A stretch of DNA of 48,213 nt from an uncultured Rhizobium sp. (GCA_964655235.1 CAZZLX010000002.1:1-48213); one strand, 5' to 3'; shown: positions 2,708 to 31,091, counted from the stretch's first letter. Translations and numbers: made by a program. The notes: generated from the letters alone by a model not told the origin.

Positions 2708-3339
2708 GGCTGCTGCCAGAACAGCTGCTCACAGAGGGCCATGTATTCGTTCCGCAGCATGTTGCCGAGCGAGAACCAGCGGATATAGGAGCGGATCTCC
2801 TCGGCCGGCAGTTCCAGAATGCCGCGCCGGTAGAGAACCTCCTGGGCTTCCCAGAGCAGAAGGTTCGCGGACAGGAGGCCGAAATAGGCTTCGGCCCATG
2901 TCCTGGCTTCGGCACCGGCGCGGATCGTGGAGATCTTGCCGACATAGAGAGGTTGATCCGGCTCCGCCTGGGCCAAGGCCCGGCAGATCTCGGGGATCTC
3001 GGACCGGGTCAGGACGTCCGCTCCGCCGGCATCGGCGTTGCGGTGCCGCAGGTTCCATTCCTTGACGACGAGAATGGTTAGCCGATCGGCGAGCAGGCCG
3101 ACGGTATTCATCCCGACCGCCCGCGAGCCGTCGCGCGTGCGGACCGACACCGGCCGCCTGATCGCGGCGATGAGGGCCGTCTCGGCATCGCGCATACGCT
3201 CCAGGCGCGGCTTGAGGTCGCCCAGCAGGCGATCGAGCGGCTGGGCTTTGTCGCTGAGGCCGAGGCGCGCCGCGAAGTCGCGCGAATAGTCGGCGAGCGC
3301 GAGGAAGTAGCTCTGGTCAGGTACGGAGAATGAGATCAT
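2704..3339 (-). CDS. Hypothetical helical protein, possibly DUF4254-like
   Basis: I start it at the internal ATG 3339 (MISFSVPDQSY...). The longer ORF to 3504 would overlap the upstream oxidoreductase gene by about 190 nt. It contains LADRLTILVVKEW and LLLWEAQEVLYR, which resemble motifs in the small protein at 4499-4894. The family name is from memory only. Confidence 0.55.
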   Translation of the reverse strand: MISFSVPDQSYFLALADYSRDFAARLGLSDKAQPLDRLLGDLKPRLERMRDAETALIAAIRRPVSVRTRDGSRAVGMNTVGLLADRLTILVVKEWNLRHRNADAGGADVLTRSEIPEICRALAQAEPDQPLYVGKISTIRAGAEARTWAEAYFGLLSANLLLWEAQEVLYRRGILELPAEEIRSYIRWFSLGNMLRNEYMALCEQLFWQQP

Positions 3340-4399
3340 CGCACGTGAGGACGGACATGGTGGACGCGGAGGCCTCGATCTGCGCCATGAGATACTGGGT
3401 GCGCCATCCCTGTGCAAAGCCCGGCTCGCATTGGCCGCCGGCGCGGACCGCCGCGACGAAACGATCAAGGAGGCGCCGGAAGGGCAATGCCCGGCCGCCG
3501 GCATTGTCCTGGTGCCGATCCCTGGCGACGACCTCGGCCGCCCCGTCGGTCGGGACGCGGTAGAGCGCGAACCCGGTCATGATGCCGGGCTGCTCCTTGA
3601 CCAGGCGGTAGCTTCCCTTGGTGCAGAGGATCACCCATTCGTGGATGTCTTCGCCAGGAGCTGCATTGTCGAGCAGGACGCGAGCGGTTGTACCGTTGCG
3701 ATGGTGCAGCAGGATCTCCGCGCGATCCCATGCAGCCAAGGTGTCCGGGGGCGCGAAGGTCCGGGTGCGCAAGTTGTCGAGGGAGGCCTCGAGAGAGTGG
3801 ATCGGACCGAGCAACCATTCGGCGAGATGCGCAACGTGACTGGCGAAGCTGGTGACGACCCCCCCGAAGCGCCGACCGTCGGTCTTCCAGCTCCATATGT
3901 GATGCTTGTGCGCGTAGGACTCGGTTCGCCAAGCCAGTTCCGCCCGGATCGGCGTCCCGAGTTCTCCCGACACGAGTCCGTCACGGAGCGCCCGGAACGT
4001 GTCGAGCTCGGAGAAGCTGAAATTTACCGCCGTGGTCAGGTTTGCCGAGAGGCGGGCGAGAGCGGAGGCTTCGGCGAGGGTTGCCGCGATCGGCTTCTCG
4101 CTCACGACCGCGATGCCGCGCATCAGCGCCGATTGCACCGCCGCCGCCGTGACATCGGGCGGGAGGGCGATCGAGACGATGTCCGGCTCAAGCGCCAGCA
4201 ACTCCTCGACGTCGTCGGTCGCATGGGCGATGCCGTGCCGGGCGGCGGCATCGATGGCCTTGTCGCGACGGCGAGAGGCGACGCCGACGACCTCGACCCC
4301 CGGCTGGTCAAGCCAACCGGGAAGATGTACAGCGTATCCGAAACCGAGGCCTGCCACCGCGACACGAAGTGGCCGCCTGGGGCTTCCAGCAGATGACAT
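3317..4399 (-). CDS. Gfo/Idh/MocA family NAD(P)-dependent oxidoreductase
   Basis: N-terminal Rossmann signature LRVAVAGLGFGYAVHLPGW, followed by the EKP motif (VVSEKPIAATLAEA) typical of this family. Length is 360 aa. Confidence 0.8.
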   Translation of the reverse strand: MSSAGSPRRPLRVAVAGLGFGYAVHLPGWLDQPGVEVVGVASRRRDKAIDAAARHGIAHATDDVEELLALEPDIVSIALPPDVTAAAVQSALMRGIAVVSEKPIAATLAEASALARLSANLTTAVNFSFSELDTFRALRDGLVSGELGTPIRAELAWRTESYAHKHHIWSWKTDGRRFGGVVTSFASHVAHLAEWLLGPIHSLEASLDNLRTRTFAPPDTLAAWDRAEILLHHRNGTTARVLLDNAAPGEDIHEWVILCTKGSYRLVKEQPGIMTGFALYRVPTDGAAEVVARDRHQDNAGGRALPFRRLLDRFVAAVRAGGQCEPGFAQGWRTQYLMAQIEASASTMSVLTCDDLILRT

Positions 4400-4498
4400 A
4401 AGATTATTGTCCGTCAGAGCGCGCGGAAGGCTGGGAACGCTTCTTGAACATACCGTCGAGGAGGTGGTACCAGCAGACCGATATTCAGGGGGCCGGAA

Positions 4499-4894
4499 AT
4501 GTTAGTGCAAATCGAGATCTCCCCAGGAGAGCTCCTAGATCGCATTGTAATTCTAAAGATAAAGAAGCAAAGGCTGGTCGGAGCGGCGAAGCAGGCGAAT
4601 GTCGTTTCTGAACTGGAGCGCTTGCAGAAGATTCAATCTCGGACCGTTGAAATTGACGAAGTCATGAATCGTTTGTGTATTGAACTTGAGCGGATCAACG
4701 ACGAGATCTGGGTATTGACCGATCAGGTCTATGAGCGTCGGCGGCAGGGCATCTACGACGAGTCACTTGCGCGGCTTTGCATGCGGGCATTCGACCTCAA
4801 CCGGGAGCGCGCGGAAGTCAAACGGCGCATAGACGATCGGCTCGGTTCGAGCATTCTCGAAGAGAAGAACTACGGCGATATCGTGAATGCCTGA
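4499..4894 (+). CDS. Small helical protein, DUF6165-like
   Basis: MLVQIEISPGELLDRIVILKIKKQRL...ELERINDEIWVLTDQV...NRERAEVKRRIDDRLGSSILEEKNY matches my recollection of DUF6165 proteins. The gene and its flanks are visibly lower in G+C, about 43-57% per 60-nt line against about 67% elsewhere. Confidence 0.6.
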   Translation: MLVQIEISPGELLDRIVILKIKKQRLVGAAKQANVVSELERLQKIQSRTVEIDEVMNRLCIELERINDEIWVLTDQVYERRRQGIYDESLARLCMRAFDLNRERAEVKRRIDDRLGSSILEEKNYGDIVNA

Positions 4895-4978
4895 TATTAC
4901 CCCACGGCCCCCGGGACGGAGTGCGCTCTGACGGGCGTTGGTCGTGCCGTGTGAAGCGTCGCAAAGGTCGAGTCGATC

Positions 4979-7645
4979 ATGAAAGCTCTAAAGGTTCTCG
5001 GCGACGGTATCCGCCGGCTCTCCACCGTTTCCGCCCGCAGGGAGATCTCCCGCCTTTGCCGGGAGATCTCGGCGCGCGAGCCGGAATTCGCAGCGCTCTC
5101 CGACGAGGAGCTGCAGGCGCGGGGCCGGGACCTGAAGCAGCAGGCGGCGGCGGGAACGCCGCTCGACGATCTCCTGGTTCCGGCTTTCGCCGCGGTTCGC
5201 GAGGCGGCTAAGCGCGTTCTCGGCCAGCGGCCTTTCGACGTCCAGATCATGGGCGGCATCGCCCTTCACCAGGGCCTCGTCGTCGAGATGAAGACCGGCG
5301 AAGGCAAGACGCTGGCGGCGACGATGCCGGCGTTCCTGAACGCGCTCGGCGGCCGCGGCGTGCATGTCGTGACCGTCAACGACTACCTGGCCAAACGCGA
5401 TGCGGAGTGGATGGGAGCTGTGTATCGCTTCCTCGGCCTCGAGGTCGCGAGCCTCACCGGGGGGATGGAGGTGGCTGACCGGAAGCGCGCCTACCAGGCC
5501 GACATCACCTACGGAGTGCATACTGAATTCGCCTTCGACTATCTGCGCGACAATCTCCGGCACTCCCTCGACGAGATCGTCCAGCGCGACCTCGACTACG
5601 TAATCATCGACGAGGTCGACTCCGTCCTGATCGACGAGGCGCGGATGCCGATCGAGATCATGACGCCGTCATTGGAAACGTCGGCATCCTGCTACGAAGT
5701 CGATCGGCTGATCCAGCAACTCGACCCGGATCACATCGATCTCGACGAGAAGCAGCGCCGGGTGCAGCTGACCGAGGACGGCATCGACCGGATCGAGGAG
5801 CTGCTGAAGGGCGCTGGCCTGATCAAGGAAGGCGACCTTTACGACCACCAGAACCTCTGGCTCGTTCAGCTCGTGAGTCAGGCGCTCAGCGCCCACCATC
5901 TCCACAAGCGCGACCGCGACTACATCGTCAAGGACGGCGACGTGGTCGTCATCGACGAGCTGCGCGGACGCATGCTCTCGGGCCGGCGGCTCGGCGACGG
6001 ACTGCACGAGGCGCTCGAGGCCAAGGAAGGCCTGACGCTTCGTAACCAGGGAACGACCGTCGCGCAGACCACCTACCAGAACTACTTCCGCCTCTATCGC
6101 CGCATCGGCGGCATGACTGGTACAGCTTCCATGGACGCGCAGGAGTACCAGCAGATCTACGGCCTTTCCGTGGTCGACATCCCGACTAATCGGCCGATGA
6201 TCCGGGTCGACGGCGACGATGAGGTCTATCGCTCCTCGACGGAGAAGCTGGCTGCGATCGTGGAGCGTACGAAGAAGCACCACGCGCGCCGACAGCCGAT
6301 CCTGATCGGAACGACGTCGGTCGGGCAGTCGGAGGCCATTTCGGCGGAACTTTCGCGTCACGGCATCGCGCACGAGGTGCTCAACGCCCGTCAGCACGAG
6401 CGCGAAGCCGAGATCATCGCCGAGGCGGGTCGGCCGGGCGCGGTCACCGTCGCGACAAACATGGCCGGGCGAGGCACCGACATCCAGCTGGGTGGCAACC
6501 TCGCCCATCGGGTCGCCCAGGCAACTGCCGGCATGAGCGATGCGGCGGAAATCGCCAGGGTCACGGAGACGATCACGCGCGAGGTGGCCGAGGCGCGCGA
6601 AGCGGCGCGGGCGGCGGGCGGCCTGCTCATCATCGGCACCGAGCGCTTCTACTGCCGGCGCATCGACGATCAGTTGATCGGTCGTGCAGGTCGCCAGGGA
6701 GATCCGGGCGAGACGGTGTTCATGCTGTCGCTCGACGACGAGCTCATCCGCATCTTCGGCGGCGCCGACCGGCTGCGCCGCCGGCTCGACAAGATCGGGC
6801 TCGACCAGGGCGCCGCGATGTTCCATTCCTGGCTCACCCGTGCGATCCGCAAGGCCCAGGGCACGGTCGAGGAGATGCAGGTCGAGAGCCGCATGCGCAT
6901 CCTCGACTTCGACGACGTCGCCAACGACCAGCGAAAGATCGTCTACAACCTGCGTCGCGAGATCCTGGCCGAAGAGGATTTCGACCATCGGCTGGCGCCC
7001 ATGCGGACGGAGATCCTGGCGGCGATGATCGCACGCCGCATACCGCCGGACGCGTACGCCGAGCAATGGGACCTTGCCGGCCTCAAGGCCGATCTGCTCG
7101 ATCTGTTCAATCTGGTCGTTCCGGTGGAGGCCTGGGCCGCCGAGGAAGGCATCGCCGACGAGGAGATGCTGCAGAGGATCGAGACCTGCGTCGTCGACCT
7201 CTGGAGGCAGCGGCTCGAGGCCTTCGAGCCGGGTGAACGCCTTCGGGTAACGCGCTACGTCGTCATGCACGCCCTCGACCAGTGCTGGCTCCACCAGATC
7301 GCGTCCCTCGAGCACCTGCGCTTCGGCGTCAATCTGCGGTCGACGGCCTTGCTGATCCCCCTGCAGGAATACCGGAAGGAGGCCTACAGCTTTTTCGAGG
7401 AGATGCTGGCGGAGGTCGGAAAGACCGTCGCGCGCTCGCTGTCGCGCCTCGTTCCCAACCCCGACCCGGTGAAAAATCCCGCACCGCCCCCGCCGCCGAC
7501 CGAGCCTGTCCGCGTCAAGCGCCTGCAGATGTGCCCATGCGGATCGGGATTGCGCTTCAAGGAATGTCACGGGCGCGTCGTCGGATCGGAGGCGATGAAT
7601 TCGCCGGCAGTCGCCGACGTCGCAGTTCATTCCTCCAAGGCATAG
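4979..7645 (+). CDS. secA: SecA-family preprotein translocase ATPase, probable accessory paralog
   Basis: Full SecA architecture is present: Walker A EMKTGEGKTLAA, VTVNDYLAKRDAEWM, Walker B IIDEVDSVLIDEAR, NBD2 blocks VATNMAGRGTDIQLGG and GGLLIIGTER..RRIDDQLIGRAGRQGDPGE, and the C-terminal zinc motif CPCGSGLRFKECHG. It departs from canonical motifs: DEAR-MPIEIMTP in place of DEARTPLIISG, and TERFYCRR in place of TERHESRR. Confidence 0.9.
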   Translation: MKALKVLGDGIRRLSTVSARREISRLCREISAREPEFAALSDEELQARGRDLKQQAAAGTPLDDLLVPAFAAVREAAKRVLGQRPFDVQIMGGIALHQGLVVEMKTGEGKTLAATMPAFLNALGGRGVHVVTVNDYLAKRDAEWMGAVYRFLGLEVASLTGGMEVADRKRAYQADITYGVHTEFAFDYLRDNLRHSLDEIVQRDLDYVIIDEVDSVLIDEARMPIEIMTPSLETSASCYEVDRLIQQLDPDHIDLDEKQRRVQLTEDGIDRIEELLKGAGLIKEGDLYDHQNLWLVQLVSQALSAHHLHKRDRDYIVKDGDVVVIDELRGRMLSGRRLGDGLHEALEAKEGLTLRNQGTTVAQTTYQNYFRLYRRIGGMTGTASMDAQEYQQIYGLSVVDIPTNRPMIRVDGDDEVYRSSTEKLAAIVERTKKHHARRQPILIGTTSVGQSEAISAELSRHGIAHEVLNARQHEREAEIIAEAGRPGAVTVATNMAGRGTDIQLGGNLAHRVAQATAGMSDAAEIARVTETITREVAEAREAARAAGGLLIIGTERFYCRRIDDQLIGRAGRQGDPGETVFMLSLDDELIRIFGGADRLRRRLDKIGLDQGAAMFHSWLTRAIRKAQGTVEEMQVESRMRILDFDDVANDQRKIVYNLRREILAEEDFDHRLAPMRTEILAAMIARRIPPDAYAEQWDLAGLKADLLDLFNLVVPVEAWAAEEGIADEEMLQRIETCVVDLWRQRLEAFEPGERLRVTRYVVMHALDQCWLHQIASLEHLRFGVNLRSTALLIPLQEYRKEAYSFFEEMLAEVGKTVARSLSRLVPNPDPVKNPAPPPPPTEPVRVKRLQMCPCGSGLRFKECHGRVVGSEAMNSPAVADVAVHSSKA

Positions 7646-7705
7646 AGTCGGGGTTACGCTGAACGAAGCGGAGCCGGCGGCGATGTACGCGGCACTCCAG
7701 CACCG

Positions 7706-9265
7706 ATGAAGGGACAGGATGGCTCCTTCGCCTTGAGGCGGCGGCTCGCCGATGCCCCTTCGTCGCCGCAGGACCTCGTCGATCTCGGGCTTGCCGCCTT
7801 CAGGGGGCGCGAGGACGGCGCGGCCAGCTGGCTCGGGCGGGCCGCCGCGACCGTCGAGGACTCCGCGGTGCAGTTCGCCTATGCGGTCGCGACCGCCGAG
7901 AACCGTAACGCGCGGCGCGCGCTCAAACGGGCGCTGACGCTGGAGCCGACCTACTCGCCCGCCTGGGTCGAGCGAGCGTCACGGGATCCGGAGACTGCGG
8001 TCCGCAGTCTCCAGCGCGCGATGACCATCGACCCGACGGATATCGGCCTGGCCGTCAGCTTGGCGGCGGTCCTGCTCGACCGCCGCGAGGTTGCCGGAGC
8101 GCGCACCATCCTGGAGGCTGTTCTCGCCGCCGACCGCGAGCGGGCGTCGGCCTGGATCAATCGGGGCCGGGTCGCCGTCGAAGAGGACGACTGGCCTTAT
8201 GGTCTGGTTTGCGCACGACGCGCAGTCGTCCTTGCACCCGCCATGTTCGAAGGCTGGTTGAATATCGGGGGCATCTTCGAGGAGCGTGGCGACCGGGACG
8301 CGGCCGTCTCCGCCTCGGCACGGGCGGTCGTCATCGAGCCCCGCCACCCCAAGGCGCGATGGAACCGATGCCTGACCCGCCTCGGGCAAGGCGACTGGCG
8401 GAAGGGTTTTGCGGATTTCGACGTCCGCTTCCTGGTCCAGCAAGCCTATCCACACACACTCGCCCTGCCCCGCTGGGACGGCAGGACGCGTGCCGCGCAC
8501 CTGCTCGTCCACGACGAGATCGGCTATGGCGACGTCTTCAACTTCCTTCGCTATGTGCCGTTGGCGAGGGCGCGGGTGGATCGCCTGACGCTCGAGGTGA
8601 AGCCGGGCCTTCCCCGACTGCTCGAGGGATATCCCGGCATCGACCAAGTGATCGAGCGTGGCGCCGTTCCGCCGGTCGAGGCCGGCTATGACGCCTATCT
8701 TCCGATGGAGAGCCTGCCGGGACTTTTCGCGACGACGGTGGAAACAATTCCTCCGCCCACTCCCTACATCCGGCCGCCGGCGGCGTTGAAAGCGGCATGG
8801 GTGCGGCGGCTGGCGGACTGCCACCGTCCGCGCATCGGATTGTGCTGGGCGGGAAATCCCGGAAGCGGCTTCGATCAGAAGCGCTCGTGCCGGCTTTCCG
8901 ACCTGCAGCCCATTCTGGCGGTCGAGGGTCTGTCCTTCGTCTCGCTGCAGAAGGCGCCTGAGCCCATCCTCGCACCCGGCCTGCTCTCGGTCGGAGACCA
9001 GTTCGTGGACTTCGCCGATACGGCTGCCGCCATCTCAGAGCTCGACCTGGTGATTTCCGTCGAGACCTCGGTGGCGCATCTGGCCGGCGCGATGGGGCAG
9101 GCGCTCTGGATCCTGCTGGCGCCCAACCCCGCGTGGCGCTGGCTGCGTGATCGCGAGGATACACCCTGGTATCCGGGTGCCCGGCTCATACGCCGTAAGC
9201 CGGACGAGTCCTGGTCCGACGTGACGAGGAAAGTCGCCGACGACCTGCGAGCGCGCTTTGCTTGA
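7706..9265 (+). CDS. TPR-repeat protein fused to a GT9 (heptosyltransferase-like) domain
   Basis: N-terminal TPR-like repeats. The C-terminal part has GT9-type blocks shared with three paralogs: DEIGYGDVFNFLRYVP, IGLCWAGNP, FADTAAAISELDLVISVETSVAHLAGAMGQALW, and RWLRDREDTPWYPGARLIRR. Confidence 0.8.
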   Translation: MKGQDGSFALRRRLADAPSSPQDLVDLGLAAFRGREDGAASWLGRAAATVEDSAVQFAYAVATAENRNARRALKRALTLEPTYSPAWVERASRDPETAVRSLQRAMTIDPTDIGLAVSLAAVLLDRREVAGARTILEAVLAADRERASAWINRGRVAVEEDDWPYGLVCARRAVVLAPAMFEGWLNIGGIFEERGDRDAAVSASARAVVIEPRHPKARWNRCLTRLGQGDWRKGFADFDVRFLVQQAYPHTLALPRWDGRTRAAHLLVHDEIGYGDVFNFLRYVPLARARVDRLTLEVKPGLPRLLEGYPGIDQVIERGAVPPVEAGYDAYLPMESLPGLFATTVETIPPPTPYIRPPAALKAAWVRRLADCHRPRIGLCWAGNPGSGFDQKRSCRLSDLQPILAVEGLSFVSLQKAPEPILAPGLLSVGDQFVDFADTAAAISELDLVISVETSVAHLAGAMGQALWILLAPNPAWRWLRDREDTPWYPGARLIRRKPDESWSDVTRKVADDLRARFA

Positions 9266-10802
9266 TCCGAAGCTGGAAGCGGCGGTCGCGGCCTTGCATC
9301 AGCGGCAGGGACCGGCGGCGCTTCGGCTGATGCGCGGGCATCTGGCGACGATGCCGTATGACGGACAGGCGCTGCACCTTCTCGGGGTCGCGTGCAACGA
9401 GCTGGGCGCGAAAAGCGATGCGATCGACTGGCTCGGCCGGTGCATCGCGGTCCTGCCCGCGTCGCCTCTCCCCCTGGCAGCGCTCGCCGGCGTCCTCATC
9501 GATCGCGAGGAGATGCAGGCGGCCTTGCGCGCCTTGCGACGCGCCGTGTCATTGGCGCCGGCCGTCGACGTCTACCTGCTCTCGATTGCGGCGGCGCTCG
9601 CGAAGACGATGCCGGCCGCCGAAGCGCTCTGGCTCCGGCGGGCGCTTGCGATCGATATGCGAAACGGGGTAGCCCACGGCAACCTGGGCATCTGCCTCCG
9701 GCGCGAAGAGCGCCTCGATGAGGCAGGAGCGGAAAGTCGGAAGGCGCTCGCCTTCCTGCCGGCCCAGCCGGAAAGCCTCAACAACCTTGTGATCCTGGCG
9801 ATCCGCGACGGCAGGCTGGAAACAGCGGACGTCTGGTCGACGCGCGCTGTCGCGACCCGTCCCGGCTTCGCCGAAGCGACCTGGAACCGCGCGATAGCGC
9901 GCATGCTTGCCGGGAGGTTTCTGGAAGCGTGGGACGACTGGGAGACCCGCTTCGAGGTTCCCGGCGCGCAGAAGCACCGTCATCCCGCCGCCCGCAGATG
10001 GCGTGGCGAGGATCCAGCCGGAAAGACCGTTCTTCTGTTCGCCGAGCAGGGGCTCGGCGACACGATCCAGTTCAGCCGATATGCTCCGCTCGTCGCGGCG
10101 CGGGGCGCACGGGCGGTGCTTGCCGTGCAGGCAAGGCTCGTTCGCCTCCTGAAGACGCTGCCCGGCGTGGCGGACGTCGTTGCCGCGGATGTAAACGAGC
10201 CGGGTTACGACTGGAACTGCCCGTTGATGAGTCTCCCGGCAGTTTTCGGCACGACGCTGGGCTCCGTGCCTGCCGCCGTTCCCTACCTCGCTCCGCAGGA
10301 TTCCGGCCGGCTGGCCTGGAGGCGGCGTCTGGACGCGGGGCGGGCATTGCGCGTGGGCCTCTGCTGGCAGGGCAATCCGGCGAACGCGGACGATCGGAGA
10401 CGCTCGTTTCCCCTCGACGTTTTCGAGGGTCTTCGCGACATGCGGGACGTGCAGTTCGTCGCGATGAGGGTGACGGACGAGCCGATCCCCTCCGGCTGGC
10501 CGATGCTGGACGCGGCGCCATGGCAGCACGACATGGCGGACACCGCCGATCTCCTTGCCGAGCTCGACCTGCTGATCACCTGCGATACGGCAGTGGCCCA
10601 TCTTGCCGGCGCGCTCGGCCGGCCGGTCTGGACGATGCTCGCACATGCCGCGGACTGGCGATGGCTGCAGAAGCGCGAAGACACGCCCTGGTATCCTACG
10701 ATGAGGCTTTTCCGGCAGCCCCGTGCCGGCGACTGGACCTCCGTTGCCGAGGAGGTGAAGCAGGCACTTGCCGCAAGGACGACGAGGTTCGCGCATTCAT
10801 GA
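9258..10802 (+). CDS. TPR-repeat protein fused to a GT9 (heptosyltransferase-like) domain
   Basis: TTG start overlaps the upstream stop (TTGCTTGA). Blocks seen: AEQGLGDTIQFSRYAP, VGLCWQGNP, MADTADLLAELDLLITCDTAVAHLAGALGRPVW, and RWLQKREDTPWYPTMRLFRQ. Confidence 0.8.
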   Translation: MLDPKLEAAVAALHQRQGPAALRLMRGHLATMPYDGQALHLLGVACNELGAKSDAIDWLGRCIAVLPASPLPLAALAGVLIDREEMQAALRALRRAVSLAPAVDVYLLSIAAALAKTMPAAEALWLRRALAIDMRNGVAHGNLGICLRREERLDEAGAESRKALAFLPAQPESLNNLVILAIRDGRLETADVWSTRAVATRPGFAEATWNRAIARMLAGRFLEAWDDWETRFEVPGAQKHRHPAARRWRGEDPAGKTVLLFAEQGLGDTIQFSRYAPLVAARGARAVLAVQARLVRLLKTLPGVADVVAADVNEPGYDWNCPLMSLPAVFGTTLGSVPAAVPYLAPQDSGRLAWRRRLDAGRALRVGLCWQGNPANADDRRRSFPLDVFEGLRDMRDVQFVAMRVTDEPIPSGWPMLDAAPWQHDMADTADLLAELDLLITCDTAVAHLAGALGRPVWTMLAHAADWRWLQKREDTPWYPTMRLFRQPRAGDWTSVAEEVKQALAARTTRFAHS

Positions 10803-12487
10803 GCACGGTCATCGATCCATTTCTCGAGGCGGAGCGGTACCACCGCAACGGCGATATCGCTGGCGCCGAAGCATGGGCGCGGCGCGCGCTGGCACAGTCT
10901 CCGCAAGAGCCGGCCATTCTCAACCTGATGGCGGTGCTGGCCGATCAACGGTTCGATCTCCTCGCCGCGACAACCGCCTATGGCCGCGCCCTGGCGCGCG
11001 ATGCCTACAACCTCATGATCTTCGGCAATCTCGCCGGCACGCTGTCCCGCTACGGTCTCGTAGAGCCCGCGGTGCGCATCGGCCGCCGAACCCTGGCGCT
11101 TTCCCCCGCAGACCAGACGGCCCTCAACAACACCGCACAGGCCCTCAAGGCAGGCGGCTTCGTCAAGGAGTCGATTTCCTGCTACCGGCGCGCCATCGCG
11201 ATCGCTCCTTCGGGTCCGCTGCACAGCAATCTCATCTTCACGATGAGCTACGACGACGAGGTTACGAGCGATGCCCTGTTCGCCGAGTATCGGCGGTGGG
11301 AGGATATCTACGCCCGGCCGCACTATCGGCCCGGCCGACGTCACACCAATCCCGCCGACCCCGATCGGCGGATCGTCGTCGGATATGTTTCTCAGGACTT
11401 TCGCGACCATCCGCTCGGACGAATCCTGGTCGAGCTGATCGAGAACCATGATCCGGGGCGCGTGCAGGTCAACGCGTATGCCTCGATCCGATACTCCGAC
11501 GAGCTGGCGGAACGCTGTCGTCGCCGCAGCGGCGTATGGCGGCAAGTCACCGGACTTTCGGACGCCGACCTCGCCGAGCAGATCCGCGCGGATGGCGTGG
11601 ATATCCTTGTCGTCGTCGGCGGCCACAGTGCACACAACCGCCTGCTGGTGACGGCGCATCGGCCGGCACCGATCCAGGTGAGCCTGGATGACGTCTCGAC
11701 GAGCGGTCTCGAGGTGGTCGACTACTGGATCTCGGATCCTCTGCTGCACCCGATTGACGGCGAAGGCTGGAGCGAGCGGTTCACTGAAACCGTCTTGCGC
11801 CTACCGTGCTTCTTCCTTCAGCCGCCCGATGATCTGGCGCCGCCGGTTCAGGCGCTGCCCGCACTGAAGGCGGGTCGCGTCACCTTCGGCTCCTTCAGCA
11901 ACCCGGCCAAGCTGACGCCGACCACGATCGCGGCGTGGAGCGCGGCGATGCGGACGGTGCCGGGCTCGCGGGTCGGCCTGAAGTACGTCGACTGGTATGC
12001 CGATGCGTCGGTGCAGCGGCGCGTTGTCGGCATGTTCGCGGCCGAGGGCGTGAGCGCCGACCGTATCGTGTTCGGTGGCGGCGACCATACGCGCGCCGAG
12101 CAGCTCGCACTCTGGAACGACATCGACATTGCGCTGGATCCCTTCCCGTTCGGCGGTTGGACTTCCAGCTTCGAGGCGCTGTGGATGGGCGTCCCGGTGA
12201 TCACTCTGTTGGGCGAGCGCTTTGCGGGCCGCGTCGGGTACGCGGTGATGGATCGCCTCGGCCTCGGAAATTACGTCGCGCGGTCGCCGGCCGAGTTCGG
12301 AGCCATCGCCGCTGCCGTCACGCAAGACCTCGGAGCGTTGGCCAGGGTGAGGGCCGAGCTTCGGGAGAGGCTGCGCCGGTCTCCGCTTTGCGACGGCAAG
12401 GTGCAGGCCGGCTATTTCGAGGATGCCTATCGTGAGGTCTGGCGGCGATGGTGCCGCGCGCAAGCGGAGGTCCAGGCGTCTCGATAG
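10799..12487 (+). CDS. TPR-repeat protein fused to a GT41 (OGT/FlmG-like) glycosyltransferase domain
   Basis: I start it at ATG 10799 (MSTVIDPFLEAERYH), which overlaps the upstream TGA as ATGA. The 290-aa Arg-rich extension in the listed ORF from 9929 lies inside the preceding gene. Blocks seen: RRIVVGYVSQDFRDHPLG, VDILVVVGGHS, PAPIQVS, VTFGSFSNPAKL, and LDPFPFGGWTSSFEALWMGVPVITL. Confidence 0.85.
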   Translation: MSTVIDPFLEAERYHRNGDIAGAEAWARRALAQSPQEPAILNLMAVLADQRFDLLAATTAYGRALARDAYNLMIFGNLAGTLSRYGLVEPAVRIGRRTLALSPADQTALNNTAQALKAGGFVKESISCYRRAIAIAPSGPLHSNLIFTMSYDDEVTSDALFAEYRRWEDIYARPHYRPGRRHTNPADPDRRIVVGYVSQDFRDHPLGRILVELIENHDPGRVQVNAYASIRYSDELAERCRRRSGVWRQVTGLSDADLAEQIRADGVDILVVVGGHSAHNRLLVTAHRPAPIQVSLDDVSTSGLEVVDYWISDPLLHPIDGEGWSERFTETVLRLPCFFLQPPDDLAPPVQALPALKAGRVTFGSFSNPAKLTPTTIAAWSAAMRTVPGSRVGLKYVDWYADASVQRRVVGMFAAEGVSADRIVFGGGDHTRAEQLALWNDIDIALDPFPFGGWTSSFEALWMGVPVITLLGERFAGRVGYAVMDRLGLGNYVARSPAEFGAIAAAVTQDLGALARVRAELRERLRRSPLCDGKVQAGYFEDAYREVWRRWCRAQAEVQASR

Positions 12488-14262
12488 GCGTGCTCGACCG
12501 CAGCGGCATAGCTCCGGTCGTCCATTAGCGGCGATCCCGCGAGGCGAGGACGCAGGGTTTCCCGCATCTCCCGCAGGCGACCGACGTCGGTCGCCAGCCG
12601 GCATGCCGTCTCGACATACGCCGCGGGCGTCGGGGCGACCAGCTCCGTGGCGCCGGCATGACGCAGAAGCATCGCGCTGGTCCGTCCGACCATCCGATCG
12701 GCCGCCAGGGTCACGACCGGGATGCCCATCCAGAGAGCTTCGAAGCTGGCCGTCGCGCCGCCGAAGGGATGCGGGTCGAGGGCGATGTCCACCGCGCTTA
12801 GCGCCTGCAGATGCTCGTCCTTGGCGAGAGAGCCGGAGGCGAAGTCGACGCGATCGAGCGGGAGGCCATGGGCGTGCAGGCGCTGCTGCAGCACCGATCG
12901 CGTCGGCGCGTCGCCCGTCCGCCCGTGAAACTTGAGCCAGAGCCTTGCGTCAGGAACCCCTTCCAGGATGCGTGCCCACAGCGCCAGGGTCTGGTCCGAC
13001 CATTTCGCAGGATTGTTCGCCGAGCCGAAGGTGATGAAGCCGTTCCGCAGCGCGGGCGGCGGCTCACAAGGGATGGCGCGCGGCGACCCATACAGGATGA
13101 GAGTCGGGAGATGGTGGACCCGCTCGGCGAAATATTCGGGCGACCCTGCCGGATGCAGATCGCGATCCGAGAAGGTGACGACGCTGTCGGTGCCGGCAGA
13201 AGTGAGATCGTAGGCCGCGAATTGCAGGGGAGCCGCGTGCCTGAATGCGAGCGCCGGCCGGTTGCCTGAGAACCGCGCCGCGACATGGACCAGGATGTCG
13301 ATGCGGTCGGCTTCGATGAGATCGCAAAGCACGGTATCGCTGAGGCCGGTGACGTCGCGCCAGGCGCTGGCTGCCGTCCGGAATCGATCGGTGAGAGCAT
13401 CCGGACGGGCGACGGCGGCATAGAAATGGGCGGCCACCCGGTCGCGGTCATGGGCTTCGACCAGGCCGATGAGGTTATGGCCGACCGGATGGTCGTGGAG
13501 GTCCGAAGAGACATAGCCGACGCGAAGACGCCGCTCCGGCTGCGGATCATGGAGCATCGGCGACCGGATCTCAGCCTTGCGCGCGATCTCTGCATGACGA
13601 CGAACGGCCACGGCCAGCCGAGGTGCGGTCGCCGCATAGGAGGCGATCATGACCGCGAGGTTCGCGTACTCCGCGTGAGCAGGCGAAATGGCGAGCGCCC
13701 TCTCGACAAGAGCTGCCGCGGCGTTTGCGAAGCTCAGGGCCTGCTCGGCGCGGGCGGCCTCGACCAGGGCGTCCGGATCGCCGGGCGCCAAGCTTACGGC
13801 GCGACGCCCGGCGGCGCGCGCCTCAGCCAGGCGACCGCTCGCGCGCAGCAGCGAGGCGGCCACCCGACACACCTCGATCGAATAGGGAGCGAGCGCGGTG
13901 GCGCGCTCGATCGCGCGCCGATGCGCAGGCCCGAGAGCCAGGACGTGCTGGGCACGGGCGAGCGCCGCGTGCCGGGTCGCGTCCTGAGGATCCACGGCCA
14001 GGACGCGTCGAAGGCTGCGGCTCGCGGCGGCAAAGTCGCCGGTACGAAGCTCTACTGCCGCCGCTGCCTCCAGCAGCAAGCTTTGTCCCGGGGACAGGGC
14101 CACCGCCCGATCGATCCAGGGGCGGGAGCTCACCGGATTTCCGTCGTCGGCCAGGTGCGAGCCGAGAGCAATCAGGGCGGTGGCTTCGGCCGGCGCGAAC
14201 GCGATGGCAGCGCGGCACGCCAAAAGGTGCGCGCCTGTCGCGGATCGCGGGAGATTCACCAT
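12427..14262 (-). CDS. TPR-repeat protein fused to a GT41 (OGT/FlmG-like) glycosyltransferase domain
   Basis: Blocks seen: RRLRVGYVSSDLHDHPVGH, IDILVHVAARFSGNR, AAPLQFA, ITFGSANNPAKW, and LDPHPFGGATASFEALWMGIPVVTL. The 3' end overlaps the convergent gene by 61 nt. Confidence 0.85.
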   Translation of the reverse strand: MVNLPRSATGAHLLACRAAIAFAPAEATALIALGSHLADDGNPVSSRPWIDRAVALSPGQSLLLEAAAAVELRTGDFAAASRSLRRVLAVDPQDATRHAALARAQHVLALGPAHRRAIERATALAPYSIEVCRVAASLLRASGRLAEARAAGRRAVSLAPGDPDALVEAARAEQALSFANAAAALVERALAISPAHAEYANLAVMIASYAATAPRLAVAVRRHAEIARKAEIRSPMLHDPQPERRLRVGYVSSDLHDHPVGHNLIGLVEAHDRDRVAAHFYAAVARPDALTDRFRTAASAWRDVTGLSDTVLCDLIEADRIDILVHVAARFSGNRPALAFRHAAPLQFAAYDLTSAGTDSVVTFSDRDLHPAGSPEYFAERVHHLPTLILYGSPRAIPCEPPPALRNGFITFGSANNPAKWSDQTLALWARILEGVPDARLWLKFHGRTGDAPTRSVLQQRLHAHGLPLDRVDFASGSLAKDEHLQALSAVDIALDPHPFGGATASFEALWMGIPVVTLAADRMVGRTSAMLLRHAGATELVAPTPAAYVETACRLATDVGRLREMRETLRPRLAGSPLMDDRSYAAAVEHAYRDAWTSACARHHRRQTSR

Positions 14263-14384
14263 GGAGCAACGGCTTAGCTGCCGTACTCTCCAGGAACAAG
14301 CGGTATCGACCCTCCTCCCGAGGGCGTGCTACGAGCCGGGCCGGATCTCGCCGCGCATCAGACAACTCCGCATCGCCAGCTGGA

Positions 14385-16442: not shown

Positions 16443-17156
16443 ATGAGTAGGTCCCGTCAGGCCCTTGTCGCCATCGCGTTATGGTGCGCGATGCTCATCG
16501 GGTCGCTGCCTCCGGCGATGGCCGCAGACGACCTCGCCCGAGCCACGGCCCTGATGCAGCGGAACGACTTCGCTGCCGCCATCCCGCTGCTGCGTCAGCT
16601 CGCGGACGAGGGCAACGGGGACGCCCAGGCGTATCTGGGAGGGATTTACCTGGCGGGGCTCGGCGGGCTGCCGCGCGATACGGCGCTCGCTGGGAAATGG
16701 CTCAGACATGCCGCCAGGCAGGGAAATGCGACCGCCGCCTTCAACCTCGGCCTGATGGCGGAGCGGGGCGAAGGCGGGCTCGCAGACTTCAGCGGCGCGA
16801 AGGCCTGGTACGAGCAAGCCGCGTACGGCGGATTCCCGATGGCCATGCTGAAGCTGGGCGAGGCGTATCGCAACGGGTCGGGGACGCCGATCGACCTCCA
16901 GCGGGCGAGGCAGTGGCTGCAATGGGCGGCCGAGGCCGGGCTGTCCGATGCTCAGAACCTTCTCGGCGTGATGATCGCGAAAGGTGAAACCTACGGGTCG
17001 CGGGTCGACGCATATGCCTGGTTCAAGATCGCCGCCCGGGAACGCCAGCCGGAGGCCGAAGGGAACATGGACCTGCTGCGCCCTGAGATGTCCGACCAGG
17101 AGATAGCGGAAGCCGATCGGCACGCCGACGTGTGGCTTCCGATGCATCAGCACTGA
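16443..17156 (+). CDS. Secreted Sel1-like repeat (SLR) protein
   Basis: N-terminal Sec-type signal peptide MSRSRQALVAIALWCAMLIGSLPPAMA|AD. It is followed by about five Sel1-type repeats: GDAQAYLGGIYLAGLG..D...A..W, GNATAAFNLGLMAERGEG, GFPMAMLKLGEAYRNGSG, and LSDAQNLLGVMIAKGE. Confidence 0.8.
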   Translation: MSRSRQALVAIALWCAMLIGSLPPAMAADDLARATALMQRNDFAAAIPLLRQLADEGNGDAQAYLGGIYLAGLGGLPRDTALAGKWLRHAARQGNATAAFNLGLMAERGEGGLADFSGAKAWYEQAAYGGFPMAMLKLGEAYRNGSGTPIDLQRARQWLQWAAEAGLSDAQNLLGVMIAKGETYGSRVDAYAWFKIAARERQPEAEGNMDLLRPEMSDQEIAEADRHADVWLPMHQH

Positions 17157-22248: not shown

Positions 22249-22787
22249 CTGTCGGGAGAGAAGCGTGCGACCCGTAAGCCGGCGGTCCAGATTCCGTCAA
22301 CCAGGAAGTGCCGGGCGTAGCGGGCCTCGACCGTAAAGCCAGCGGCTTCGAAGGCGCGACCGGACGCGACATTTGCCTCGATATACCCCGCGGTCAGTTT
22401 GTGCAGGCCGAAAGCTGCGAATGCATAGTCGGCTAAGGCACCGATCGCCTCTCGCGCATAGCCTCGGCCCCAGCACGCTCGTTCGCCGATCATGAGACCG
22501 ATCTCGCCGCGACGGTTCGGCCAGTCGATGGGCCCGAGCTTTATGTTGCCGACGTGCTTGCTCGTTTCGCGCTCGAACATGCCGAGGAGCAGGGAGTCGC
22601 GGCTGTCGTTGGCCGAGCGGATGAAGGCGGCGAGCGACCGGGCGTCGTGCTCGCCGTGGCGGGCTTCGAGGTAGCGCAGCACATCCGGATCCCGCATCCA
22701 GGCGAGATATGGTCCGTCCGCCGCCGTCTCGTCGAGCGATCGGAGGGTCAGTCTGGGCGCATCGATCGGGCGGTCGCCGAGAAGCAT
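22245..22787 (-). CDS. GNAT-family N-acetyltransferase (RimJ/RimL-type; candidate PseH/FlmH-like sugar N-acetyltransferase)
   Basis: Blocks seen: LTLRSL...YLAWMRDPDV..YLE, VGNIKLGPIDWPNRRGEIGLMIGE..WGRGYAREA, and GLHKLTAGYIEANVASGRAFEAAGF. I chose ATG 22787, 4 nt after the upstream stop; ATG 22835 is the alternative. The stop shares a CTAG with the convergent gene. Confidence 0.75.
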   Translation of the reverse strand: MLLGDRPIDAPRLTLRSLDETAADGPYLAWMRDPDVLRYLEARHGEHDARSLAAFIRSANDSRDSLLLGMFERETSKHVGNIKLGPIDWPNRRGEIGLMIGERACWGRGYAREAIGALADYAFAAFGLHKLTAGYIEANVASGRAFEAAGFTVEARYARHFLVDGIWTAGLRVARFSPDS

Positions 22788-22791
22788 GGCC

Positions 22792-30992: not shown

Positions 30993-31066
30993 GGCCTCGG
31001 TTGCGATCCTGCCCGTCGTAAGGACGCTTTGCAGTCGCCATATGGTTTTCTGCTGTGCTCAAAGTG

Positions 31067-31086
31067 AACTTAAAACTAAGTTAAGT
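31067..31086. repeat. Overlapping short inverted repeats in the AT-rich divergent intergenic region between the integrase and the DUF1612-like gene
   Basis: AACTTA(31067-31072)-AAAC-TAAGTT(31077-31082), and ACTTAA(31068-31073)-N7-TTAAGT(31081-86). They lie 6-25 nt upstream of the ATG at 31092. Function is unknown; an operator or promoter role is possible. Confidence 0.4.
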
Positions 31087-31091
31087 GCAGA

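Follow-up and report, generated by a model that had tools for sequence, protein, structure and literature searches.

A diverged SecA paralog in an operon of TPR-glycosyltransferases: a candidate accessory Sec system in an uncultured Rhizobium

The window, the whole stretch of 48,213 nucleotides analysed here from an uncultured Rhizobium sp. (GCA_964655235.1, CAZZLX010000002.1:1-48213), carries a complete secA gene among genes for putative protein glycosyltransferases. What is a SecA doing in such company, and would it serve the export of a glycosylated protein, as a sequence-only reading of the locus had proposed? The genes in question form a run on one strand:

4499-4894, +, DUF6165 protein of 131 aa that opens the secA2 operon (Pfam PF19662, E 6.8e-9)
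4979-7645, +, SecA paralog ('SecA2'), 888 aa, complete (full SecA Pfam domain set)
7706-9265, +, TPR and GT9-like GT-B protein, 519 aa (TPR Pfam matches; C-terminal motifs common to the TPR-GT9 family)
9258-10802, +, TPR and GT9-like protein, 514 aa (Pfam Glyco_transf_9, E 1.7e-5, and TPR)
10799-12487, +, TPR and GT41 protein O-glycosyltransferase, 562 aa (Pfam GT41)

Coordinates and Pfam matches agree with the earlier description of SecA as the second gene of this run, and the overlapping start and stop codons claimed for the three transferase genes are present: the second starts 8 nt ahead of the stop of the first (TTG...TGA), and an ATGA overlap joins the third to the second. The gap between secA2 and the first TPR gene measures 60 nt. 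Terminator-like sites were absent from the gene junctions of the operon, and site counts were not above those of shuffled sequence. Six further loci with 60-96% SecA identity repeat the gene order, as do three contigs whose SecA is the same as in the window; the order was kept in all loci seen, down to 60% SecA identity. Because the same order recurs in other loci, the arrangement is not due to chance, and the proposed check of neighborhood co-occurrence found the transferase linkage in every clade member seen.

The first transferase is syntenic everywhere (53-89% identity), the second is syntenic in the relatives, and the third is conserved best among the operon transferases (59-92% identity in relatives). 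Only TPR models match the first in Pfam; its C-terminal half shares the GT9-like motif set of the second, so the label TPR-GT9 is acceptable for it as well. The third is a clear GT41 protein (E 1e-82 against SPINDLY in the PDB and 3.5e-75 against the bacterial OGT of Thermobaculum), and HMW1C-like chains match it weakly (E 0.002-0.004). None of the three has an N-terminal signal peptide or transmembrane segment, in line with the earlier view of them as soluble enzymes, and by these features the operon transferases resemble protein O-glycosyltransferases and are predicted to be cytoplasmic. The DUF6165 subfamily comprises 17 clusters with 50-92% identity, some members of which lie on contigs identified by their length as those of the SecA paralog. 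Its AF2 model (pLDDT 88) predicts a four-helix bundle with terminal strands, for which no significant match was found among PDB folds.

A housekeeping secA was sought in the metagenome-assembled genome (MAG) of the closest relative, GCA_044223515.1. This MAG holds a 94-96% identical paralog on contig 3 (JBGALV010000003.1) and, on contig 5 (JBGALV010000005.1), a canonical SecA of 896 aa that is 49% identical to the window protein, carries the usual 11-residue and 16-residue housekeeping motifs, lies in the usual context with rotamase, ArgJ and GNAT/NUDIX genes upstream, and is 97% identical to the housekeeping SecA of a sister species. That the two secA genes share one genome was shown through MAG binning for this closest relative, whose two contigs also agree in tetranucleotide composition (r = 0.986, rank 1 of 70 loci). 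In phylogenies, the paralogs form a monophyletic, long-branched clade (100/100 NJ bootstraps) apart from the housekeeping orthologs. On average, the clade lies 0.83 from the housekeeping SecAs of Alphaproteobacteria, which in turn are only 0.63 away from non-alphaproteobacterial outgroup SecAs. The gene is therefore neither a sole secA that clusters with housekeeping orthologs nor one whose relatives are never linked to glycosyltransferases. We read it as a true paralog with the housekeeping SecA predicted elsewhere in the genome, and its phylogenetic position indicates that it arose from an alphaproteobacterial SecA.

SecA2 scores above the NCBI housekeeping SecA equivalog cut-offs in NCBIfam and fails the models of the known SecA2 families, namely TIGR03714 (663 bits vs a cut-off of 930), TIGR04221, NF012136 and TIGR04397. 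As it stands outside all of these families, the earlier word 'analogue', and not 'homologue', is the right one. The clade is very rare, with 2 of 185,579 species genomes and one metagenome contig, and none of 72,556 known plasmids gave a relative of the window SecA. The secA2 reading frame is unbroken in 10/10 members, and a dN/dS of 0.067 at a dS of 0.40, similar to the 0.056 of the housekeeping copy, points to maintenance by purifying selection.

The architecture of the protein is complete, as had been claimed: SecA_DEAD (359 bits), PP_bind, P-loop_SecA, SecA_SW and SEC-C are all present, and the C-terminal zinc motif reads CPCGSGLRFKECHG. The paralogs retain Walker A and B, D217, R509, R566, R574, R577 and the zinc finger, and have Ile in place of R572 in motif VI. 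The deviations noticed at near-invariant positions hold clade-wide, as DEARMPIEIMTP and TERFYCRR are kept in all paralogs, whereas canonical alphaproteobacterial SecAs have a different 11-residue motif and TERHESRR, respectively. Among 310 SecA positions with at least 97% conservation, 48 are replaced in at least 8/9 paralogs, and the clade-specific replacements are themselves conserved. They gather in the preprotein-binding domain (PPXD; 18/50, odds ratio 4.7, p = 3e-5) and at the two-helix-finger tip, with which SecA touches the translocating chain and where LRGYAQRDP has become LRSTALLIP. From this distribution we infer that the substrate specificity of SecA2 has changed, with a remodelled preprotein clamp (PPXD, stem) and finger tip. 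Tyr794 at this tip is required for translocation by E. coli SecA; its counterpart has given way to T, A, L or S in 7/9 paralogs, which could mean that translocation activity was lost and leaves room for a non-translocating chaperone role. Finally, the paralogs end in an additional, conserved free peptide, ...HSS(K/N/M)A, on a variable linker (HSSKA in the window copy).

The surrounding island was annotated as follows:

10-693, +, RepA_C plasmid-type replication initiator, 3' part of a 324-aa gene cut by the window start (Pfam E 3.4e-33)
698-2707, -, TPR and GT41 (OGT/SPY/FlmG-like) protein glycosyltransferase, 669 aa (Pfam Glyco_transf_41 and TPR; syntenic in L081 and L082)
2704-3339, -, conserved 211-aa ORF (gene call with 79-86% identity in relatives)
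3317-4399, -, GFO/IDH/MocA-type oxidoreductase, sugar-nucleotide modification type (Pfam; syntenic)
12427-14262, -, TPR and GT41 protein, 611 aa, convergent with the secA2 operon (Pfam; synteny)
14385-16424, +, TPR and GT41 protein, about 679 aa (Pfam on the longer ORF 13725-16424; start taken from the gene calls of relatives, 678-687 aa)
16443-17156, +, Sel1-repeat protein, 237 aa, N-terminal signal peptide, predicted periplasmic (Pfam Sel1; N-terminus MSRSRQALVAIALWCAMLIGSLPPAMAADD)
17181-19166, +, TPR protein, 661 aa (Pfam; downstream of Sel1 in relatives)
29103-30992, integrase
31092-32213, HTH_13 gene
32475-33152, ParA
46857-48116, -, TPR-GT9 gene, 3' 419 of 458 codons in the window (Pfam; full-length identical protein P0136)

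The last of these genes leads to a second Sec component. It corresponds to the last gene of an operon that in relatives (loci L098 and L103) runs 81 aa, 81 aa, SecB paralog, and three TPR-GT9 genes, the remainder of which lies past the right end of the window; in the window's own genome, the SecB paralog ('SecB2') would sit just beyond that end. The SecB2 of the relatives matches Pfam SecB over its full length (97.5 bits), retains counterparts of the SecA-binding residues D20, E24 and E77, and turned up in no species genomes other than the two that carry SecA2. The TPR-GT9 protein in the window is modelled as TPR and GT-B (AF2 pLDDT 94) with SPINDLY and OGT as best folds. A SecB paralog that heads three more TPR-GT9 genes is new evidence in favor of an accessory Sec system.

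Around twelve TPR-containing GT-B glycosyltransferases of the GT41/OGT-FlmG and GT9-like types are encoded on the island, along with two Maf proteins and a set of nonulosonic-acid (Pse/Leg-type) biosynthesis genes, with NeuB, CMP-transferase and aminotransferase genes present. Maf, FlmG-like GT41 and Pse/Leg-type genes together are the classical toolkit of flagellin glycosylation and count against a Sec-export reading, as flagellin exits by the flagellar type III apparatus and not by Sec. The 211-aa ORF has no Pfam or NCBIfam match, and its likeness to DUF6165 is not significant; the Sel1 gene is syntenic in all longer loci. The repA, parA and integrase genes reported on this stretch were all found, the integrase, HTH_13 gene and ParA lying more than 21 kb downstream of secA2. 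RepA occupies the same position in all relatives and is better conserved (83-99% identity) than any other island gene; along 95% of its length, it shares 43-47% identity with annotated RepA proteins of Roseomonas, Azospirillum and Tistrella plasmids. This high conservation suggests an accessory replicon of roughly 100 kb, and the island is probably plasmid- or chromid-borne. The accessory look noted earlier is further strengthened by the sister species, in which a search for the paralog-specific motif gave no match.

The best explanation, to which we assign a probability of roughly 50%, is that the island's SecA2, together with SecB2, would deliver a cytoplasmically glycosylated client to SecYEG. 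The soluble TPR-glycosyltransferases would O-glycosylate one or a few clients in the cytoplasm, chosen by their TPR arms. SecB2 would keep the client non-native and pass it to SecA2 via the retained zinc-finger/acidic-patch contact, and SecA2, with its intact ATPase core and remodelled clamp and finger tip, would carry this bulky, modified polypeptide to the housekeeping SecYEG channel. One may further speculate that the HSS(K/N/M)A tail docks SecA2 on a neighboring TPR domain and so couples glycosylation to targeting. No SecY2, SecE2 or Asp-like gene and no Ser/Thr-rich or repeat client was found in the window, where the earlier reading had likewise noted no SecY2 or Asp genes and no obvious Ser/Thr-rich client, and the same applies to the flanks of relatives examined (approximately 30 kb for the client).

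It is also possible, if on the unlikely side, that SecA2 and SecB2 act as cytosolic chaperones, an ATP-driven clamp and a holdase, which present an unfolded substrate to the TPR-glycosyltransferases while the product takes its usual route, flagellar type III or other. Flagellin would be a candidate substrate, given the two Maf proteins, the FlmG-like TPR-GT41 and the nonulosonic-acid genes, and since the TPR domains of FlmG and Maf-1 bind flagellin (PMC7591256; bioRxiv 10.1101/2023.12.03.569772). The lost finger-tip Tyr, the R572 replacement, the lack of SecY2 in the sequences examined, and the resemblance of the HSSKA tail to a TPR-protein docking motif fit this as well. However, PPXD, scaffold, wing, finger helices and zinc finger are all kept under strong purifying selection, flagellins are already served by the dedicated chaperones FliS or FlaF (PMC7591256), about 80 kb of island sequence held no flagellar gene, and the searched literature offers no precedent for a SecA unfoldase or holdase outside translocation. 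An indirect linkage is improbable: here, a large plasmid or chromid would bring its own SecA and SecB for unglycosylated envelope proteins such as Sel1, or to relieve the Sec load of the host. The conserved plasmid-type repA beside the cluster, contigs of 90-118 kb in relatives, the conserved, predicted periplasmic Sel1 protein encoded 9 kb downstream, and the housekeeping-level NCBIfam scores agree with it. Both Sec paralogs, however, head TPR-GT runs with overlapping or short junctions rather than adjoining envelope-protein genes, the known plasmids searched hold no SecA2 relative, and the concentration of substitutions in the substrate-binding domain argues for a special client, not for extra general capacity.

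That SecA2 is a decaying or functionless duplicate, as the loss of several invariant positions, the finger-tip Tyr and R572 among them, might indicate, is very improbable in view of the intact frames, the low dN/dS, the conserved clade-specific replacements, and synteny down to 60% identity. Hardly credible is a sole housekeeping SecA that came to lie in a glycosylation island by chance: full length, intact ATPase motifs and equivalog-level scores would suit it, but the 48 changed positions, the long branch and the rarity of the clade would not, and it is already contradicted by the canonical secA, in rotamase-argJ-NUDIX context, of the MAG that also holds the 94-96% identical ortholog.

Gram-positive SecA2/SecY2 systems export serine-rich adhesins that are glycosylated in the cytoplasm. 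In streptococci and staphylococci, these accessory Sec systems comprise SecA2-SecY2-Asp1-5, GtfA/B and further glycosyltransferases, with the serine-rich repeat adhesins GspB, Fap1 and SraP as cargo. Our locus shares a diverged second SecA genetically linked to cytoplasmic protein glycosyltransferases, a housekeeping SecA retained elsewhere, and a divergence centred on substrate-handling parts. In contrast, no SecY2 or Asp proteins were found and no client gene adjoins SecA2, TPR-GT41 and TPR-GT9-like transferases stand in place of GtfA/B, a SecB paralog comes in addition, the host belongs to the diderm Alphaproteobacteria, and this SecA2 fails TIGR03714 and was derived independently from an alphaproteobacterial SecA. 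The SecA2-only systems of Mycobacterium, Listeria, Clostridioides difficile and Bacillus anthracis use the housekeeping SecYEG with shorter SecA2 proteins (solved chains of 778-786 aa vs 888 aa) that are not known to have the C-terminal zinc-finger tail, whereas the full architecture is kept and a tail added here. Common to both are an accessory SecA that has no channel of its own, is non-essential and is limited to particular lineages, and a dedicated chaperone partner, SecB2 here and, in the available excerpt of PMC6333443, SatS in M. tuberculosis. Their Gram-positive or mycolate hosts, the lack of any known glycosyltransferase linkage, and the failure of the window SecA against TIGR04221, NF012136 and TIGR04397 set them apart.

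In Gram-negatives, HMW1C (GT41) and the heptosyltransferases TibC and AAH glycosylate adhesins in the cytoplasm before Sec export. These soluble GT-B enzymes for HMW1 and TibA/AIDA-I resemble ours in modifying the protein prior to Sec, and since their cargo crosses by Sec, Sec is able to carry such cargo in Proteobacteria. However, they lack TPR arms, rely on the housekeeping SecA without a dedicated SecA or SecB, and are encoded beside their adhesin, while no adhesin was seen here. The flagellin glycosylation islands of Caulobacter, Shewanella and Campylobacter combine FlmG-class and Maf-class transferases with Pse/Leg genes and share the TPR and GT-B architecture, the Maf, NeuB, CMP-transferase and aminotransferase genes, and cytoplasmic O-glycosylation with the acceptor chosen through TPR (PMC7591256). 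They differ in that flagellin takes a route other than Sec, our sequences showed no flagellar gene, and the number of TPR-GT paralogs is far higher here (at least 12); the literature searched reports no such island with SecA or SecB genes. Lastly, the available excerpt of PMC4452313 describes secondary SecA_DEAD proteins of Planctomycetes, Verrucomicrobia and some Proteobacteria, a class defined by this domain and neighboring type I secretion genes. As portrayed there, they likewise represent a second SecA-related gene in Gram-negatives, including some Alphaproteobacteria, whereas our paralog has the full SecA domain set and glycosyltransferases, not type I secretion genes, as conserved neighbors. 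The system described here has the look of a Gram-negative equivalent to accessory Sec systems, whose descriptions have until now come from Gram-positive bacteria.

The secA2 gene sits second in a same-strand run behind a DUF6165 gene and ahead of three TPR-armed glycosyltransferase (TPR-GT) genes, an arrangement claimed by the sequence-only reading and recovered here in the ORF list and by Pfam. The overlapping start and stop codons that it had described among the transferase genes are also present: the second TPR gene starts 8 nt ahead of the stop of the first, and the third shares an ATGA overlap with the second. A gap of 60 nt separates secA2 from the first TPR gene. The features of the window used in the following are listed below.

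Features of the window (coordinates, strand where recorded, description)
10-693: RepA_C gene, cut by the window start
4499-4894, same strand as secA2: DUF6165 gene (Pfam)
4979-7645: secA2, complete, 888 aa, between the DUF6165 and TPR-GT genes (ORF list and Pfam)
7706-9265, same-strand run: first TPR-GT, GT9-like C-terminal half
9258-10802, same-strand run: second TPR-GT, GT9-like C-terminal half
10799-12487, same-strand run: third TPR-GT, GT41
16443-17156: Sel1-repeat protein with a clear signal peptide
19163-20353: 396-aa ORF, no family match
20359-22248: 629-aa protein, weak GT1 match
22245-25375, all minus: GNAT acetyltransferase, HisF-like, HisH-like and PseA-like ATP-pyrophosphatase ORF
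22792-25375: amidotransferase with HisH- and HisF-like genes
29103-30992: tyrosine-recombinase integrase, 629-aa ORF
32475-33152: ParA
36094-38124 and 38269-40314: two Maf genes, divergent
40200-44350: nonulosonic-acid pathway (HAD phosphatase, CMP-transferase, GFO oxidoreductase, SDR, NeuB), adjoining the Maf genes
46857-48116: truncated TPR-GT9

The third TPR-GT carries both a TPR arm and a GT41 domain (Pfam, E 5.5e-34), and it matched SPINDLY (E 1e-82 over residues 40-555) and bacterial OGT (E 3.5e-75) in the PDB, so that its sequence marks it unambiguously as a GT41 enzyme. As for the GT9-like TPR genes, a further paralog within the island was modelled with high confidence (pLDDT 94); the model shows a TPR plus GT-B architecture with SPINDLY and OGT as top folds. 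Neither a signal peptide nor a TM segment was found at the N-termini of the three operon transferases, in agreement with the earlier claim. We take FlmG to be a member of the GT41 family as well. The FlmG paper gives the architecture as 'TPR + GT-B' only. The DUF6165 model is a four-helix bundle; a role as a FliS/GlfM-like adaptor was considered and dropped, as no PDB match was significant and FliS appeared only at E 0.7-2.2. Likewise, the 211-aa ORF at 2704-3339 was rejected as a second DUF6165/DUF4254-like gene (hhalign probability 1.8%). A promoter and terminator scan of 4300-12700 was uninformative, with sites no more numerous than in shuffled sequence.

With regards to the protein itself, SecA2 is a member of the SecA superfamily in which NBD1, NBD2, the preprotein cross-linking domain, the scaffold/wing and the SEC-C zinc finger (motif CPCGSGLRFKECHG) are all present (Pfam SecA_DEAD 359 bits, P-loop_SecA 261, SecA_SW 155, SecA_PP_bind 107 and SEC-C 27.5), and E. 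coli SecA structures align to residues 21-824 at E 1e-217. Against the NCBIfam housekeeping equivalogs NF009538 and TIGR00963, it scored above the cut-offs (1001 vs 814 bits and 882 vs 800 bits, respectively), and the canonical SecA in the metagenome-assembled genome (MAG) of the closest relative reached 1297 and 1125 bits with the same two models, placing SecA2 approximately 300 bits under the canonical copy. The model of the aSec SecA2 from Gram-positive cocci was missed (TIGR03714, 663 bits at a cut-off of 930), as were the mycobacterial (TIGR04221, 541 vs 725), Listeria (NF012136, 537 vs 1100) and B. anthracis (TIGR04397, 761 vs 1085) SecA2 models. Passing the housekeeping cut-offs and failing all four SecA2 models argues that SecA2 is, by these profiles, an independent derivative of alphaproteobacterial SecA, unrelated to the Gram-positive SecA2 families.

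The changes that set SecA2 apart were mapped onto 310 columns with at least 97% conservation in 114 housekeeping SecAs, which were compared with 9 paralogs (E. coli SecA numbering; PDB 2VDA chain index + 8). Of these columns, 232 are kept, and 48 carry a different residue in eight or more of the 9 paralogs. Walker A (K108), D209/E210, D217, R509, R566, R574, R577 and the zinc finger are retained. Replaced columns are over-represented in the preprotein-binding domain, making up 18 of 50 conserved columns there vs approximately 10% in both nucleotide-binding domains (odds ratio 4.7, p = 3e-5). The changes include T221M, L223I, I224E, S226M and G227T in the PPXD stem and, for example, DEFTGR to DELRGR and ENQTLAS to QGTTVAQ within the PPXD; in NBD2, H562F, E563Y/H, S564C, N569D and R572I were found. 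The two motif deviations from housekeeping SecA pointed out by the sequence-only reading are present and kept across the clade, that is, SecA2 and its relatives of 60-100% identity. At the tip of the two-helix finger, LRGY(794)AQRDP has become LRSTALLIP, and Tyr794 is gone in 7 of 9 members. The motif LDFDDV lies outside this tip, at Y648 in the scaffold helix by E. coli numbering. The N-terminus of SecA2 is without the FGxxNDR motif, and the C-terminal linker is shortened. Behind the zinc finger, a spacer of variable length (roughly 10-35 residues; window 7560-7645, residues about 861-888) leads, in 9 of 10 clade members, to a free C-terminal end that is conserved as HSS(K/N/M)A or HSS, whereas housekeeping SecAs end 2-4 residues past CHG without an HSS tail. 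The tail has the look of a small docking motif, perhaps one bound by a TPR domain. The dN/dS of the window gene vs its closest ortholog was 0.067 at a dS of 0.40, and that of the housekeeping gene pair was 0.056. As judged from codons and alignment, SecA2 is under selection, with an intact ATPase core and a remodelled substrate clamp and finger tip.

A protein search returned eight clusters with 61-100% identity to SecA2, followed by ordinary alphaproteobacterial SecAs at no more than 51%. In a neighbour-joining phylogeny of 127 SecAs, the clade stood apart from the housekeeping SecAs, and all 100 bootstraps recovered it as monophyletic. On average, it lay at a distance of 0.83 from the alphaproteobacterial housekeeping SecAs, which themselves were only 0.63 from the non-alphaproteobacterial outgroups. 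The clade never formed an exclusive group with these outgroups, and its position within Alphaproteobacteria was unstable, the sister taxon differing among bootstraps, which is consistent with long-branch effects. For a genome scan, the clade-specific motif CRRID[DN]QLIGR was back-translated; it occurred in only 2 of 185,579 species-representative genomes (JBGALV01, the closest relative, and CAZDGR01) and in one JGI metagenome contig. A further match in a Dehalococcoidia contig lay on the strand opposite to the sole long ORF and was discarded as chance.

The canonical secA was located by tetranucleotide composition, which led to the lineage of JAYRJL01, a sister-species MAG of the closest relative, and subsequently by a chimeric query of lineage-specific SecA peptides. 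Six housekeeping SecAs from the homolog list (clusters P0009, P0010, P0011, P0022, P0031 and P0041) had been set aside, as all came from other assemblies or samples. MAG GCA_044223515.1 holds a 94-96% identical paralog on contig JBGALV010000003.1 and a canonical SecA of 896 aa on contig JBGALV010000005.1, the latter being 97% identical to the JAYRJL01 SecA and 49% to the window protein. Upstream of the canonical gene lie rotamase, ArgJ and GNAT/NUDIX genes, and rotamase, argJ and NUDIX surroundings were also found at other alphaproteobacterial housekeeping secA genes (loci L095 and L096); the window secA sits among glycosyltransferase genes instead. The paralog status proposed earlier is thereby borne out in the closest relative. 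The second secA in one genome rests on MAG binning and holds for this relative rather than for the window's own genome; the two JBGALV contigs were each other's best tetranucleotide match among 70 loci (r = 0.986). In the sister species JAYRJL01, neither the SecA2 motif nor the peptides of SecB2, a SecB paralog that relatives encode beyond the right end of the window, found a match, so the glycosylation island appears to be variably present. The carriers are a handful of MAGs from wastewater and groundwater, all uncultured, and the system is very rare.

The gene order DUF6165, SecA2, TPR-GT9, TPR-GT9, TPR-GT41, followed by a convergent TPR-GT41, another TPR-GT41 and the Sel1 gene, was found at every locus long enough, across SecA2 identities of 94, 80, 76, 75 and 60%. 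As the order is conserved down to 60% SecA2 identity, the objection that homologs are never linked to transferases does not hold, and the co-occurrence anticipated by the sequence-only reading was seen in every adequate locus. The SecA2-linked DUF6165 subfamily comprises 17 clusters, some of whose members lie on contigs equal in length to those bearing SecA2. On contig CAZDGR010000004.1, the second TPR-GT9 ortholog (L091 3096-4987) has a shorter ORF of 475 aa with 53% identity over 62% of the length and is possibly degraded or recombined. ENA sample ERZ27275609 holds two related island-bearing populations in one metagenome: contig k141_5055041 (L088) encodes a SecA (cluster P0001) 99.9% identical to that of the window, and contig k141_5318813 (L099; 69,579 bp) covers the right side of the island, with a TPR-GT9 88% identical to the window's.

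No gene of the region is better conserved than RepA_C, encoded at 4741-5715 in L088 (99, 98 and 83% identity where SecA2 shows 94, 75 and 60%). Across 95% of its length, it shares 43-47% identity with proteins annotated as RepA on Roseomonas, Azospirillum and Tistrella plasmids. Because this conserved gene resembles plasmid RepAs, the island contigs of 90-118 kb may be plasmids or chromids, and by sequence the island is likely to reside on one of the two. Among 72,556 known plasmids, no near relative of SecA2 was found, with all matches below 60% identity. The repA, parA and integrase genes reported earlier are all present; the integrase, an HTH_13 protein and ParA (29103-33152) lie mid-island, more than 21 kb from secA. 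The variable presence of the island and the plasmid-type repA agree with the accessory status claimed for this SecA.

The entire 48-kb window is one protein-glycosylation island with six TPR-GT41 genes, TPR-GT9-like genes, several GT1/GT4-type genes and a pyruvyl transferase besides the Maf and nonulosonic-acid genes. The ORFs at 19163-20353 and 20359-22248 are probably further glycosyltransferases, and the minus-strand set at 22245-25375 presumably resembles those adding acetamidino groups to nonulosonic acids. In relatives, the island extends on both sides, with another NeuB set on the left, so the island probably makes two nonulosonic acids. Near the operon, the one product predicted to be a Sec substrate is the Sel1-repeat protein, which is kept in synteny at 54-87% identity and contains little Ser/Thr (5%). 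No Ser/Thr-rich ORF that could represent a glycosylated client was found beside SecA2 (S+T 5-18%, the 18% stemming from a doubtful ORF), and SecY2, Asp1-3 and SecY-like or other membrane-channel genes are absent from the window and the relatives' flanks examined; the lack of SecY2/Asp genes and of such a client noted earlier for the window was thus reproduced.

The truncated TPR-GT9 at 46857-48116 is the final gene of an operon that is complete in the closest relative (L098 5924-11377, JBGALV010000003.1) and also present in the second carrier genome (L103 9434-13026, CAZDGR010000058.1).

Gene order of the SecB2 operon
81-aa protein: L098 5924-6169; L103 9434-9676
81-aa protein: L098 6203-6448; L103 9715-9960
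SecB-like protein (SecB2), 153 aa
TPR-GT9, 501 aa
TPR-GT9, 504 aa
TPR-GT9, 458 aa

With this layout, each of the two Sec paralogs stands in front of three consecutive TPR-glycosyltransferase genes. SecB2 matches Pfam SecB over the full length (97.5 bits) and aligns with the H. influenzae and E. coli proteins; it stays under the NCBIfam equivalog cut-offs (89.7 vs 102.8 and 99.7 vs 143). In KDLSFE (KDxSFE) and IVE, it keeps the equivalents of the acidic residues D20, E24 and E77, which bind the SecA zinc finger in the 1OZB complex. The genome scan located SecB2 in JBGALV01 and CAZDGR01 and in no other genome, precisely the pair that carries SecA2. The 81-aa proteins encoded upstream are distantly paralogous (17% identity, E 1.7e-7), conserved at 79% and 89% between the two genomes, and match no Pfam or NCBIfam family; they may resemble DUF3467. 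Homologs of the protein encoded at 46857-48116 with the TPR plus GT9-like architecture are very common in environmental bacteria (at least 6702 clusters at E ≤1e-20 among 8000 candidates scored), and most are labelled merely 'tetratricopeptide repeat protein'. Given this abundance and annotation, the TPR-GT9 proteins seem to form a large and so far uncharacterised group of putative protein glycosyltransferases.

Taken together, the data establish an accessory SecA under selection, a co-distributed SecB paralog and an operon linkage, both tight and conserved, to protein glycosyltransferases that have TPR arms and are cytoplasmic. Paralogy, accessory status and linkage as put forward by the sequence-only reading are therefore backed by data, its case is strengthened by the SecB paralog, and its interpretation is partly supported. 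We infer, with a probability of about 0.5, that the SecA2/SecB2 pair takes one or a few clients glycosylated in the cytoplasm by the TPR-GTs and would bring them to SecYEG. Precedents make such export plausible: the aSec system of Gram-positive bacteria, HMW1C acting with HMW1, TibC/AAH acting with autotransporters, and SatS, a chaperone specific to SecA2. A more elaborate version, which we offer tentatively, is a Gram-negative accessory Sec pathway, independent of the Gram-positive ones, in which the plasmid-borne pair is physically coupled to a TPR-GT assembly line. Here, the client would be kept unfolded and would receive nonulosonic acids and other sugars in the cytoplasm, the free C-terminal HSSKA peptide of SecA2 could dock on a TPR domain, as EEVD and PTS1 peptides do, and a SecA with a clamp and finger tip rebuilt for glycosylated chains would thread the client through the housekeeping SecYEG.

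The main rival to export through SecYEG is that SecA2/SecB2 act as a non-translocating holdase or unfoldase that supplies the transferases with a substrate, which may be flagellin; we consider this holdase role rather unlikely. It is favoured by the Maf, Pse/Leg and FlmG-like genes, by the loss of the finger-tip Tyr, and by the fact that neither a client nor SecY2 was found. Flagellin or flagellar genes were absent from the available window and relative sequence. Extra Sec capacity for the plasmid would fit the RepA_C gene and has to be weighed next to the remodelled clamp; it is a weaker reading and improbable. A decaying copy, for which the lost finger-tip Tyr might be cited, is very improbable beside a dN/dS close to that of the housekeeping pair. 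Least probable of all is SecA2 as the sole housekeeping SecA, with its scores above the equivalog cut-offs on one side and the canonical copy of the closest relative on the other.

If delivery of glycosylated clients to SecYEG is true, the coupling of cytoplasmic protein glycosylation to a SecA of its own would have arisen on at least two occasions, and this repeated origin would be strong evidence that glycosylated cargo needs a specialised motor. The clade would then be a natural experiment on the SecA residues that adapt to bulky cargo (PPXD and stem, two-helix-finger tip, R572), and SecA2 and SecB2 would be the first such pair to have diverged jointly. It would also point to an unknown class of exported proteins with sialic-acid-like decoration in environmental Alphaproteobacteria. 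A holdase role would instead represent a new non-translocating use of the SecA/SecB fold. Since all carriers are uncultured, functional work needs heterologous reconstruction.

For comparison with previous work, the parts of the literature covered by our search describe no second SecA of full length in Proteobacteria, whether or not it is linked to glycosyltransferases, and no SecA or SecB gene inside a glycosylation island. A review places SecA paralogs in Actinobacteria and Firmicutes (PMC4257090), and 'secondary SecA_DEAD proteins' are defined by a SecA_DEAD domain together with neighbouring type I secretion genes (PMC4452313); unlike the latter, SecA2 here has no type I secretion genes as neighbours. 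The aSec system differs in its SecY2, Asp1-3 and adjoining serine-rich client gene, none of which occurs in the window and flanks examined. The SecA2 system described here would work like the accessory Sec systems, yet it lies outside every defined SecA2 family.
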